Of a stretch of DNA of 64,000 nt, positions 1-40,251 are shown one piece after another. The stretch is taken from NCBI RefSeq assembly GCF_001447785.1, contig NW_015168046.1, positions 1,832,411 through 1,896,410 on the forward strand, given 5' to 3'. A model generated the notes under the pieces. The model was not told the origin of the DNA and searched no databases. It was given only the letters and a program-made list of their open reading frames with translations. Origin of the DNA: Gekko japonicus (taxonomy: Eukaryota). Each line of letters starts with the position of its first letter. Within the stretch, counting starts at the first letter, position 1. A program made the translations under genes and the position numbers.

Positions 1-360
1 ACAAGATGTGACTAATTTAATAGAGTAACCTAGATAACCCCCCTTCCCGTTGCCACCTCGGAACGTATATTCTTTGCAGCAAGGGCAAATGATGACACGT
101 TATCAGAATATACAAAAGTACCGAAAGTCAGTAACAAGATGTGACTAATTTAATAGAGTAACCTAGATAACCCCCCTTCCCGTTGCCACCTCGGAACGTA
201 TATTCTTTGCAGCAAGGGCAAATGATGACACGTTGTAAGAGACGTATCCATCAGTGTCAGATAACAAACATGAGATTGGATCCTCGACTGGGTAAGCACC
301 AAGACCAGATAAAATACCTGCTAAAAATTTAGCCTTCGAACTGGAGTACGGTGGGCAAAA
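1..360 (-). mobile_element. 3'-terminal fragment of a non-L2 LINE (RTE-X-like ORF2 C-terminus plus 3' UTR) with a 133-bp-period tandem duplication
   Basis: The minus-strand peptide FCPPYSSSKAKFL...LLSDTDGYVSYNVSSFALAAKNIR resembles the region after the zinc knuckle in reptile non-LTR RT proteins (recall, not searched). Positions 1-101 are repeated exactly at 134-234. Confidence 0.45.
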
Positions 361-1383
361 TCGGTTCGGGGTTGGGGCTCGGATCGGTTCGGGGTTGGGG
401 CTCCCTCTCCCGGCCTTCGATGGGACGCCTTTGGTGCCAGCGTCGGAGGTTAGGAGTTTGGGGGTGCTCCTGGACTCCTCACTAACGATGGAGGCCCAGG
501 TAGCAGCCACTGCCAAGTCGGCATTTTACCATCTTCGGCTGGCAAGGCAGTTGGTTCCCTTCCTCGACCGGACTGACTTGGCTACGGTGATCCACGCGAC
601 GGTCACCTCAAGGCTAGACTACTGTAACGCTCTCTACATGGGGCTGCCTTTGTCGCAAATTCGGAAGCTGCAACTAGTGCAGAATGCTGCAGCCAGGCTG
701 TTGATGGATCTTCCTAGACGAGATCACATCCAGCCTGTGCTGAAAGCGCTGCACTGGTTGCCAATAGCGTACCGGGTTCGCTTCAAAGTGCTGGTTATCA
801 CCTTTAAAGCCCTATATGGCCAGGGACCAGCCTACCTAAGGGACCGCCTTACCCCACATGTTCCCCCAAGGGCACTACGGTCGGGGAGCCGGAGCCTATT
901 GGAGGTACCGGGCCCCCGGTCCATCAAGTTGACTATGACCCAGAACAGGGCGTTTTCGGTGGCGGCTCCTATCTGGTGGAATGAGCTCCCGGAGGAGATC
1001 AGGGCTCTGCGGGACCTAGGACAGTTCCGCAGAGCCTGTAAGACGGAGCTCTTCCGCCAGGCTTTCGAATAGGAGCCGCCGCCACCACTAGACCACCAAT
1101 GTATCAGCATACTATCGACGCCCGGGAGGACATCTGGATATGGGCATGGACTGCCAAGGCCCTAAATACTCTCTTTTGCATTATGGGCAAGACTGGGACG
1201 CTTAGAGGACCGCCATCTTGGTTTTAGCTAGATCTGTTTTAGATAGGTTATACATTATGATGTAATTTTAATATTTTGTATTTTTTCTACTGTTTTACTG
1301 TTTTATTAATTATATGTTGTTAGCCGCCCTGAGCCTCCGGGGAGGGCGGGGTATAAATACAAATAATAAATAAATAAATAATA
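361..1383 (+). mobile_element. 5'-truncated young L2 LINE (ORF2 C-terminus, 3' UTR, stem-loop, (TAAA)n tail)
   Basis: ORF 395-1072 has L2/CR1-group motifs (RSLGVLLDSSL, SRLDYCNALY, LQLVQNAAARL, LHWLP, RAFSVAAP.WN.LP). The 3' end reads GCCGCCCTGAG...GGGCGGG-TATAAA-(TAAA)n, and CpGs are retained. Confidence 0.92.
395..1072 (+). pseudogene. Uninterrupted L2 ORF2 C-terminal fragment (post-RT domain)
   Basis: 225-aa open frame lacking the EN and RT core, so not a functional gene. Confidence 0.85.
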
Positions 1384-18456: not shown

Positions 18457-19382
18457 TGGTGGTGGAAAGTGCCATCAAGTCACAGCCGACTTATAGCGAC
18501 CCTTCATGGGGTTTTCAAGGCAAGATATGTTCATGGGTGGTTTATTTATTTTATTTATTTATTTAACATTCGATTTAGTATCCCTCTCGAATCCCTTGGC
18601 TAGGGGTCTCTGAGCGGCTTACAGGTTTGGTGGTGCTAATCACCATTTTTCCCTAACTAGGGCCACAATGTATAGGGGGATGGGACAACCTACTGGCACC
18701 CCCCTATGGTGGTTGTTGTTGCTCTTTCCATCGGCTTGGCTTGGCTCGGGTCGGGTCTCTGGACTGGCGGGTGTTCTTTTCCGGCGTTCGGTGGTGGCTT
18801 CTCTTCCTCTTGAGGCGTGCGGCTCCGCCTGCTTCCGGCCCGGCAACGTCCCTTCCGGTTCCGCTGGGCTGGTGCTTGGCGTCCAAGCACGCTCCTTCTC
18901 CTTTAACGGCAGCTTCGGTGTATTCTTCTCTCGGCCACCAGGGATCGCTCGATGTGCTCCTTCAATCGCGCCCGTCTGCTGCCGCAATGCCACGCCACCA
19001 GGCCGTCTGCACCGAGTCGGTGTTCACCTCCGTCGCCGCCGTCGCCGTCTTTCCAACCAACCATACAGGGTGCCCCCCACCCTTCTAAGGGTGGGTACCC
19101 ATTTATCTACTTGCAATTAGGTTGCTTTCAAAACCGCTGGGTGGGTGGGAGCTGGGACGAAGGTCGAGAGCTCACCTCGACCACGGTGGTACTCAAACAG
19201 CCATAGTGGCTGCTCGGTTGATGTTACAAAGCAGGCGTTTAACTGCCTGCGCCATTGTCTGTCTCTGGATAGCTACCCTGGACTTCCATGATGGTTTCCC
19301 ATCCAAGTACTAATTTGGGTTTACCCTGCTTAGCTTCTGAGATCTGACAAGATAGAGCAAGCATGGGCCATCCAGGTCAGGG
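18457..19382 (-). mobile_element. 5S rRNA-derived SINE (5S-Sauria-like), interrupted by composite SINE A
   Basis: Reverse complement of 19290-19382 gives CCCTGACCTGGATGG...AGATCTCAGAAGCTAAGCAGGG...TTAGTACTTGGATGGGA, matching the 5S internal control region. The body resumes at 18457-18540. Confidence 0.8.
18541..19254 (-). mobile_element. Composite SINE copy A: tRNA/Sauria-type head, variable GC core, L2-type tail
   Basis: The head (TGGCGCAGGCAG...GTGAGCTC...CCCAGCTCCC..CCCAGCGG...AAGTAGATAAATGGGTACC) and 3' part (CATTGTGGCCCTAGTTAGG...TGTAAGCCGCTC...(TAAA)n) align with 39209-39902; the core 18702-19067 does not. Confidence 0.8.
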
Positions 19383-32913: not shown

Positions 32914-33198
32914 GGGTGATTTCCCACAAGCGCTGCTCCGCACTCACTCTTCTCTTTGGCCTGATGGTACATGTCAATTTCACACAAGCTGCTGCACGAC
33001 CGCATTTTGCCCCACAGCTTCATGCGATTTTCCCCACGTCTACTCAATCCTGTTTTTTGAGGATTGAGTAGACGCGGGGAAAATTGCACGAAGGTGCGGG
33101 GCAAAATGCGGCCGTGCAGCAGCTTGTGTGAAATTGACACATACCATCGGGGCAAAAGGGAGGAGTGAGCGCGGAGCAGCGCTTGTGGGAAATCACCC
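32914..33198. mobile_element. Fully palindromic PIF/Harbinger-type MITE (285 bp)
   Basis: GGGTGATTTCCCACAAGCGCTGCTCCGC is the exact reverse complement of the right end. The arms pair up to a short T-rich loop at ~33051-33059. 3-bp TSD ATG. Confidence 0.9.
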
Positions 33199-37709: not shown

Positions 37710-38944
37710 ATATAAATGAAACAAAGTATGCAGGAAGGAACATCACTCTGTATGTGTAACTGGTGAAAAGAAATGGCATTTTTCAAAAATTCACTAATGC
37801 AAGGCTGATGTTTAACTAACGTTGTCCTTCAGGATGTATTTCTTCCCTAAAGTTCAAAATTCAGAGAAAAATACGTTCTAAAACTCATGCCTGAAGTATG
37901 TGATAACAGATCAAAGAACCTTCCTTTATTGCAATATTTTCATCCCTGTGGAACAGAATAACGTTGGACTTTGCCTTTTGTTTGAAATCTTTACCTTTTA
38001 ATAAGTGAACTTTTGAAATTACCTCAGCGAACAAAGGTCCTCTTTCACAGTTAATCTTTTAACCCTTCAGGTTCAACTGGTATAGGCCAGAGGAGAATGC
38101 CACCGTGTTTTCACTGAACTTTTTACCCTTTGAAAAAAATGGGACAAGTGTAAAGTTCATATAGTGAGCAAGAGGTCTCTAGTGGGTATTTCTGGTATTA
38201 TTAACTTCCTGACCTCAGATAATTAAAAGGGAACAGAGAAGGCAGTATAGACTAAAACTCAACTTTGAACTTTTAACCTCTCTTGGGAAAGTATTTTGTG
38301 TACAAATAGCATACACACTAAAGCCTTGGGTTATTAACTTTCTATCACCCTTGGAAACAAAATAATATTAGCAGAACTAGTGTATCAGTTTAAAATAATT
38401 CTATTTCTGGGGATTGGTTTTTGTTTGCATTAACATTGAGACTCATAATTTTCAGCCAAAAGAATATAAGCAGTAGCCTGTTACCAAGTACCAGAGCCTA
38501 CTTGTGGGTATAGGCAAAACTGTTATGATGGGGGGAGGGATCAAACAGCACCCCAATCTATTGCATGTCTCCTTAAATCAATAACGAGGTGTTGTTATTT
38601 TTTAATGAAAAGCATTCTCAAGCAGCTGCAGAGGCAGAGGCGAATAGGCAGCATGATTAGGGTTGCCAGGTTCTATTTTTCCCCTAGTGGGGAAATTTGA
38701 GGAGTGGCATGCTGGGAGGGTGAGGGGCTGTCCCCAAGATGATGATGTCACACAGAGTGACATCACTTCAGGGATGCAGCGCCGTGTGTGCATCCCCTTG
38801 CTTTTCCCCAACCATTTAAAGGGAACCTTCCCTTTAAAGCAGCCCCCACTTCAAAAGAGCAGGCTCTGCACATGCCTGCCCTGTAAGTGGGGAGCAGCCC
38901 CTGCTTCAAGAGAGTGGGCGTCGTGTGCACCTGCCCTGCAACCT

Positions 38945-39068
38945 GGTGGCCCCACTGGTGGGCCTCCTGATGGCACCTGGTACTTTTGGCCACTGTGTGA
39001 CACAGAGCGTTGGACTGGATGGGCCATTGGCCTGATCCAACATTGGCTTCTCTTATGTTCTTATGTTC
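38945..39068 (+). mobile_element. CR1 3'-end fragment
   Basis: GTTGGACTGGATGGGCCATTGGCCTGATCCAAC stem-loop and (TTCTTATG)n tail. Confidence 0.8.
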
Positions 39069-39208
39069 AGCCTGTGAGATCACCACTTGCAGGGCAAGTG
39101 CTAGCGGCCCCCACTTCAAAAGAGCGGGTGCCACTCGCACCTGCCCTGTGAGCCGCAAGATCGCCACTTGTAGGGCAAGTGCTTGTGGTGTTCACTCGTT
39201 TTAAGTGG

Positions 39209-39866
39209 TGCGGTGGCGCAGGCAGCTTAAGCACCTGCTAGTAACATCAATAGCGAACAGCCATAATGGCTGTTCGAATCCCCACCGCAGCCGGAGTGAG
39301 CTCCCGGCCCTCAGTCCCAGCTCCCGCCAACCCAGCGGCTCGAAAAATAACATTAAGTAGAGAAATGGGTACCTGCCTTAGAGGCAGGGGGCACCCTCCT
39401 CCTGGTTCCGTGCCAGGAGGGCTAACGGTGGTGGCGGCGGCGGCAACGGGAGAGGCAAGAGAGAGGCGGCAGTGAGAAAGGCGGCGAGGAAGAACAATGG
39501 CAGTCCGACGAACCGTGGAGGTAACATCGGATGGAGGCGGGGATGGACGACGCAGCTGCGAGGCGGCGCGGCGCGGCTGGAGCCTGATGGGACGAATAGC
39601 CGACGCCGCAGTCCAACAAGCAGCGTGCGCCAACGAAAGGATCCATCAAGAAGCCCGCCGATGATCGCCAAACTACCCGGAGCACCGAGACTACGCCTGG
39701 AGCCGCCGAGAGTGAGGAAGAAGAGAGAAAGCCGCCGTCTGGGTGCCGCTAGGTAACCCCCCCACACACCCCATTGTGGCCTTAGTTAGGTTTGACTACA
39801 GATGTAGTCTAAATGTAAACCGCTCTGAGACCCATTAGGGGTCATGAGCGGTATAGAAATCACATG

Positions 39867-39901
<35 letters not shown>

Positions 39902-39902
39902 A
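39209..39902 (+). mobile_element. Composite SINE copy B: tRNA/Sauria-type head, variable GC core, L2-type tail
   Basis: A-box-like TGGCGCAGGCAG (39214), B-box GTTCGAATCC (39272-39281), Sauria-like body, long (TAAA)n tail, probable TSD AAGTGG (39203-39208 / 39901-39906). Confidence 0.85.
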
Positions 39903-40251
39903 GTGGGAGCCACTCACATTTGCCCTGCAAGCGGTGATCTCGTGGCTTGTAGGGCAGACATGGGCAGCCCCTGTTTTCAAAGAGTAGGCACTGCATGTGC
40001 CTGCCCTGCAAGCGGTGAGATCACTGCATGCAGGGCAGGTGTGGGTGGCCCCTGCCAACAACTGTTGGGGGTGGGGCTTCCCCCACCGGCCAGCTGGCCA
40101 GCTTCTGGGAGCAGCCCTAAAACTCAGGGATCCACCGCCCCTACCTGGGTGCTGGCATCCCTAAGCTTGATCCTTTTCATTTCAGCCAGTTATCCATTTA
40201 AAATTACCTTCAGTAGCTTTTCTTTTCTTATGTTGAGGAAAAGACACCAGC

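Follow-up and report, generated by a model that had tools for sequence, protein, structure and literature searches.

Stems of a long composite SINE family in Gekko japonicus change on both sides and probably reflect a selected RNA fold

The three SINEs described in squamates are 190-350 nt long, and Sauria SINEs are reported to end in (ACCTTT)n (PMC13295347, PMC10702118). The functions of SINE bodies are largely unknown according to published accounts (PMC10702118, PMC5786205). At the 3' end of UnaSINE/UnaL2 and ZfL2, a short repeat follows a stem that is interrupted by an internal loop, and the tail is common to the SINE and a LINE of the same genome (PMC1636434, PMC4176376). Anolis SINE 2 is a lizard element that has boxes A and B and is paired with an L2, Anolis LINE 2 (PMC3747384). 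The SVA/LAVA elements of primates are L1-driven, non-autonomous composites with a GC-rich centre of tandem repeats, which evolves separately in each lineage and can influence mobilisation (PMC4432496).

Here, we analyzed a SINE family of ~660 nt in Gekko japonicus, two copies of which (A and B) lie in a 64,000-nt stretch of contig NW_015168046.1 (hereinafter referred to as the window). The family consists of a Sauria-SINE-type 5' part, a CpG-rich core of ~340 nt, and a LINE-type tail. It shares a 3' stem-loop with short terminal repeats with UnaSINE/UnaL2 and ZfL2, and some lineages end in TGTAA repeats, as does UnaL2. With Anolis SINE 2 it shares the lizard host, the boxes, and the partner type, and the two may be relatives. 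Like SVA/LAVA it is a composite whose GC-rich centre evolves separately in each lineage, but its head is of tRNA type, its core has no tandem repeats, and its tail is of the stringent type. Compensatory changes in structured SINE tails have been described before, so the principle is not novel; what is new is how far such changes extend, the motifs inside the element, and evolution from many sources. Because dozens of its lineages have diverged within a single genome, this long SINE provides a natural mutational scan, which separates parts kept in sequence (boxes, AGUA/GAA, core tip) from parts kept in shape (stems, rod) and free parts.

The family was built on a Sauria SINE, yet it is not a Sauria SINE by its tail. 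The Sauria 5' head and body were recognized by local alignment to an (ACCTTT)n-ended SINE in another locus (L156), which stands for the Sauria type and aligns with family positions about 60-185. Within this alignment lie the region of the hairpin that follows box B, the GAA/AGUA segment, and the CCCA/UGGG stem in the form CCUA/UAGG. In contrast to Sauria SINEs, the family has neither a Bov-B-derived end with (ACCTTT)n nor a length of about 330-345 nt; it exceeds the length of the described squamate SINEs, carries the 340-nt core and a remodelled 5' 60 nt, and has a LINE tail terminated by (TAAA)n or, in certain lineages, by TGTAA-type repeats. In SINEBase, a different LINE-derived region defines a different family. 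No description of the family was found in the literature searched; the repeat libraries (Repbase, Dfam, SINEBase) lay outside this comparison and may hold the family or its head structure. The SINE in L156 (677-967, minus strand) is complete and located directly upstream of a truncated family copy. In two other loci (L185 and L347), what appears to be a further Sauria-type SINE lies antisense within a family copy, immediately ahead of the tail.

Copies and lineages of the family

Copy A (39209..39902, plus strand) lacks the first 4 nt present in most copies and ends in a (TAAA)n tail (39867-39902); its longest reading frames are short, as judged by eye. Copy B (18541..19254, minus strand) belongs to another lineage and is 5'-truncated by about 8 nt. 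The initial annotation compared A with B, described four stems as preserved by compensatory changes, and took this as selection on RNA structure in the source elements. All motifs that it quoted were identified in the window, on the plus strand for A and on the minus strand for B. Since two copies cannot part lineage changes from later decay, the family was sampled.

A conserved 16-nt scaffold motif (39775..39790, plus strand) had 2582 exact matches in the genome, corresponding to at least 2582 copies, and a 21-nt head pattern had 1745; reversed controls gave 0 for both. Identity was 79-100% among the best 40 matches listed per DNA search with A and B as queries. For each pattern, 90 loci out of the first 100 matches listed were sampled. 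The 90 head-pattern loci comprised 55 full copies, 17 copies without the 3' anchor, 8 duplicates, 7 failing the head filter, and 3 with N. Most of 78 full copies were 566-838 nt long.

The 55 full copies formed 40 core clusters at an identity threshold of 75%, and the Chao1 estimate of lineage number was 46-178, depending on the threshold. Identity between lineages was 79% in the head, 69% in the tail, and about 58-59% in the core (53% for shuffled cores). Among the matches listed in core-only searches, one query revealed a burst of at least 39 other copies at 85-91%, and another a continuum from 89% to 75%, which suggests many source copies rather than few masters. A model of exchangeable cassettes was rejected: nearest-neighbour identities form a continuum, and core distance tracks head distance (rho 0.31).

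Target-site duplications of at least 8 nt, a criterion for tRNA-derived SINEs, were rare (3 of 119 copies; control 0.5%), and a very low rate is likewise reported for Squam3 (PMC7983390). AAGTGG is present on both sides of A (39203-39208 and 39901-39906) as a possible 6-nt target-site duplication, and A lies within a degenerate array of 55-80-nt repeats (38839-40040). ARAGORN identified no tRNA. Family reads were detected on both strands in three RNA-seq runs, with no common start or end, and mapping of the raw reads on A in search of a free family transcript gave no start, end, or clear strand. At the end of another repeat (window positions 39000-39070), RNA reads on both strands reached ~50-100 times the depth over the SINE head.

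Stems and motifs of the head and tail

Sixty representatives, one per cluster, were aligned by sequence alone, yielding 52 heads (A1) and 57 tails (A2); eight mis-cut or deleted heads and three tails were left out. Features of copy A given below are on the plus strand.

The tRNA-derived head (39210..39288) contains a box A-like (39214-39225) and a box B-like (39272-39281) segment; both were conserved in A1. A three-way fold was predicted for the head, formed by pairing of 39210-39216 with 39282-39288, a hairpin at 39218-39238, and hairpin 1. The 5' 188 nt of A had a fold z-score of -3.6, equalled by 0 of 200 shuffles. Hairpin 1 (39254..39276) was conserved, and its 3' arm overlaps box B. The compensatory change proposed for it between A and B proved to be a change of the 5' arm only, giving a G-U pair with an unchanged 3' arm. 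The TTTG of B was found in 2 of the 15 B-type rows examined and TTCG in most others, consistent with CpG decay. Variation over the 52 lineages was mostly one-sided (G-U), with 2 tree-counted double changes versus 0.55 expected (99% point, 3).

The best covarying stem was a hairpin after box B (39290..39308), overlooked in the initial annotation, with 4 tree-counted double changes versus 0.2 expected. Its loop is complementary to a conserved 4-mer ~12 nt beyond the stem (39295-39325; A1 columns 110-113 with 134-137). These positions were paired in 207 of 208 cells and are invariant, hence outside the reach of covariation. Judging from sequence, loop and 4-mer could possibly form an H-type pseudoknot, which would compete with the 5'-end pairing.

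Further downstream (39330..39370), a stem ACCCA/UGGGU surrounds a GAA/AGUA internal loop and an apical hairpin of variable length, which is weak in A. GAA opposite AGUA was exact in 38 of 60 lineages, and in 51 if CpG decay was allowed. AGUA/GAA is given as the sequence of the sarcin-ricin/loop E motif (PMC1865062), and the family has these strands facing each other within a conserved stem and flanked by helices, a likeness at the sequence level only. This internal loop, also overlooked previously, is a putative loop-E/sarcin-ricin-type motif. Hairpin 2 (39372..39388) is located about where the likeness to the Sauria-type SINE stops. Its compensatory nature was borne out across lineages, yet with only 2 independent events (tree-counted double changes; 0.35 expected). 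Among 52 lineages, pair 205-221 was UA in 22, CG in 16, and UG in 11, the last being intermediate between the other two, and pair 206-220 was AU in 25 and GC in 14.

Hairpin 4 (39794..39809) had been placed at the same position in both copies. The motifs exist and the hairpin is strong in A-type copies, but it is short in B-type copies and limited to some clades. It was significantly better than shuffles (p≤0.05) in 10 of 56 lineages and in 12 of 26 A-type copies, no hairpin was predicted in 21 of 56 lineages, and 2 tree-counted double changes were found versus 0.2 expected. The LINE-derived tail (39814..39866) contains a stem-loop (39820-39851). In the shuffle check suggested for these stems, hairpin 1 (59 of 59 lineages), hairpin 2 (56 of 57), and the tail stem (54 of 55) exceeded their own shuffles in nearly all lineages, and hairpin 4 did so in 30 of 56.

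The tail resembles the 3' end of an abundant reverse transcriptase-encoding LINE in the genome: the same tail type ends 29 of 30 loci of this LINE, the 3' 50 nt of the SINE resemble that end, and RVT_1 is encoded by the LINE family with the SINE tail type. This partner is presumably an L2, given its likeness to the UnaL2 tail, in which UGUAA repeats follow the stem with its internal loop. A 5'-truncated LINE in the window (296..1381, plus strand; open ORF2 end, 296-1069) has the same tail type and represents a candidate partner family. It is a young fragment, with several copies elsewhere that are 98-99% identical at the protein level; its ORF2 end alone had no match in Pfam. In the search for a full-length partner LINE, all 11 LINE loci examined were fragments, and no core match was found among the best 40 matches listed. 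A-type tail matches with readable upstream sequence all resembled SINE copies. In one family copy (L243), which lacks the scaffold motif, the core continues into another 3' end of LINE-like sequence, possibly a further tail swap.

Of the roles initially suggested for the fold (processing, packaging, or recruitment of reverse transcriptase), recruitment would fit only the 3' tail stem, by analogy with UnaL2 and ZfL2. Recognition in ZfL2 is described as loop-specific (PMC4176376), but loop sequence and length vary widely in the family, and binding of its tail is a prediction.

The fast-diverging core

The core (39397..39740) is purine- and CpG-rich and 261-450 nt long across the family. It is flanked by the long-range arms of stem 3, GGCACCC (39390..39396) and GGGTGCC (39741..39747). 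Stem 3 had been described as closing the core in both copies, with an extension in A; the motifs are present in both, but the extension (12-nt/11-nt) is in B (19054-19065/18705-18715). Over 55 lineages, 371 of 385 cells were paired, partly by construction since the arms were found with fuzzy patterns. The first pair was G-U in 20 of 55 lineages, and only one pair covaried weakly. Since each arm can also pair locally, the pairing probability of stem 3 exceeded 0.5 in only 3 of 27 whole-element folds (every second representative). Among clade consensuses, 1 of 5 formed the stem.

Two further structures, both overlooked previously, are a local hairpin at the core start (39394-39421) and an inner long-range helix (39425-39432 with 39731-39738), the arms of which are about 300 nt apart. 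Both arms of the inner helix change together between clades. Its longest perfect run was 6.0 bp for native and 5.1 bp for swapped arms (0 of 5000 permutations; sisters 12:3), with weaker results for energy versions.

In mid-core, the motif GGAGCY-N3-6-GGAC, at the tip of a predicted rod (39574..39602), was exact in 42 of 55 cores versus 0.6 in shuffles. At least 8 pairs across the motif were predicted in 37 of 41 lineages with the motif in place, and the mean z-score of the rod was -1.8 versus +0.9 directly upstream. Of 15 sister pairs, 12 favoured the native over the swapped arms (p 0.018), and in the next shell of the rod the ratio was 18:5 (p 0.005). Inherited core substitutions were depleted at predicted pairs (88:172 versus 144:146; p 2e-4). 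They kept pairs no more often than private substitutions (30:57 versus 55:114; p 0.78), and RNAalifold gave no consensus structure for a sequence-only alignment of the core tip, in which the motif was in part visibly misaligned. The z-scores of the core domain (-1.5 to -3.4) were not counted as support, because the limits of the domain had been set at the arms of stem 3 and the antisense strand gave similar z-scores in clade A. A second conserved word, GATCCCTGGTGG, was found in cores of 24 of 55 lineages, within a hairpin upstream of the rod tip; it was absent from A.

Paired changes and their explanation

In the proposed head structure, 90.8% of cells were paired and both-side changes numbered 108, versus 38.5 in shuffles; the corresponding values for the tail structure were 85.8%, 52, and 26.5 (0 of 500 shuffles each). 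As this control ignores relatedness, a tree of 55 lineages was built; it includes the stem columns, and the structures were chosen after the sequences had been seen. The covariation check suggested with the initial annotation was run all-versus-all as an R-scape-like G-test against a tree-based null, and none of the pairs attained E<0.05 (best 0.07). Proposed pairs ranked 1, 2, 4, and 6 of 18145 in the head and 1 and 2 of 7021 in the tail. The top covarying column pairs were non-canonical, A1 153/192 changing from U-U to C-C and A2 118/162 from A-U to G-G; the latter lies at the base of the tail stem, and LINE tails have the G-G state.

Against a stricter null, in which joint changes of every kind counted and those at CpG were retained, the head was non-significant (16.6 versus 12.2; 95% point, 18) and the tail significant. 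Non-CpG Watson-Crick-to-Watson-Crick double changes falling within one branch numbered 13 in the head (null mean 1.8, max 9) and 6 in the tail (null mean 0.6, max 4; 1000 draws each), and slid controls gave 0-2. Outside CpG context, G-U exceeded A-C in 63:30 and 47:16 cells, and by 10:2 for states present in 4 or more lineages; counted by column, the excess was small (22:15 and 6:8). Sister-swap tests were mostly non-significant for short stems. A first round (hairpin 1, 3:4; hairpin 2, 7:5; hairpin 4, 7:9; inner helix, 13:12) was mostly uninformative, since sisters share stems; a later one gave 14:9 and 11:9 for the core tip stem and 10:4 for an unpaired control.

The stems changed on both sides together beyond what the family tree predicts, and we consider it likely that this is because an RNA fold is selected whenever a copy acts as a source. 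The structural constraint is real and moderately supported. Selection on RNA structure in source elements, as initially proposed, is supported at the family level by tree-aware double changes, G-U over A-C, and core arm swaps, whereas three of the four examples given for it were weaker than stated. A ribozyme, also suggested initially, was not recovered: an Rfam search, covering HDV-like and hammerhead models, had no match at gathering score, with 0 in the window, only E 0.38 or worse on A, and none within elements from 6 further lineages. The conserved head segment was also compared by eye with an HDV-like fold, which was rejected because the helix order did not fit.

Template switching of the quasi-palindrome type, in which one arm serves as the template for the other during replication or reverse transcription, would repair or extend hairpins without selection on the fold; as the whole explanation it is unlikely. 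The mechanism has been published for RNA hairpins (PMC8794818), the covarying stems are mostly short local hairpins, many double changes fall on a single branch, and hairpin 4 was lengthened by symmetric TAC/GTA additions in A-type copies. Template switching could contribute to local hairpins, notably hairpin 4. However, it predicts perfect Watson-Crick repair rather than the lineage-wide G-U states seen, does not predict covarying non-canonical pairs, and leaves the ~300-nt inner helix, the unpaired AGUA/GAA, and the conserved core tip unexplained.

Similarly unlikely, though possible, is that the core is a promoter captured from a CpG island or a LINE 5'UTR and maintained for its DNA sequence. 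Its conserved words would then be transcription-factor sites (GC box, CCAAT, CRE, ETS, YY1-like), and the rod would result from a left half rich in G and a right half rich in C. LINE 5' parts are reported to form SINE bodies for RTE and Vingi (PMC5786205). CpG observed/expected was 1.0 in the core versus 0.26 in the flanks, and the composition gradient is present. Words were more frequent in the 55 cores than in shuffles (ETS-like, 24 versus 6.2; YY1-like, 11 versus 2.3; TGACG, 40 versus 28.8; CCAAT, 24 versus 16.2), counts that are inflated by shared ancestry; the ETS-like, YY1-like, and other factor-site labels are tentative. Arm swaps keep the gradient, yet native arms were still favoured. 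Moreover, the words occur in a minority of lineages, in contrast to the spaced tip motif, all 120 of 120 matches listed from three core-only searches span long core stretches, and a promoter does not cover the head and tail stems.

It is very improbable that the stems are mere leftovers of a tRNA, a Sauria SINE, and a LINE tail, and that shared ancestry and decay of CpG in the two arms account for the covariation. In favour of this view, CpG-CpG stacks made up several of the double changes, events per stem were few (2-4), and boxes A and B hold some arms at the DNA level. Against it, the excess survives CpG removal and use of the tree, and the core rod persists at near-saturated divergence.

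Under selection on the RNA fold, the constraint must act on copies that are transcribed and copied again, since genomic copies decay once inserted. The sense-strand G-U bias, the long-range helices, and the conserved unpaired motifs point to RNA as the target. The SINE would be transcribed by Pol III from boxes A and B, an internal TTTT (last 40 nt excluded) being present in 1 of 121 full copies and absent from the other 120. The head may then refold into a non-tRNA shape, and the loop-E-type and rod-tip motifs may be recognized by host proteins with a role in stabilising or routing the RNA. The 3' stem-loop would be gripped by the LINE ORF2 protein for reverse transcription, as shown for ZfL2. 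Because new copies bring their own promoter, many would act as sources, and the core would drift almost to saturation with only its shape, closing helices, and tip held.

In a bolder reading, which we regard as possible yet doubtful, the element would be more than a simple SINE, namely an RNA replicon made up of several structured domains. Some 50-180 coexisting lineages would retain the loop-E domain, the three-way junction, and a rod tip that binds protein, with a core turned over to near-random identity under shape-level selection and possibly under pressure to evade sequence-specific silencing by the host. If so, the tip motif would mark a host factor needed for LINE-driven SINE mobilisation.

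Elsewhere in the window (32914-33198), a long MITE-like inverted repeat was identified, with 97-nt arms that are 90% complementary and separated by an 8-nt spacer.
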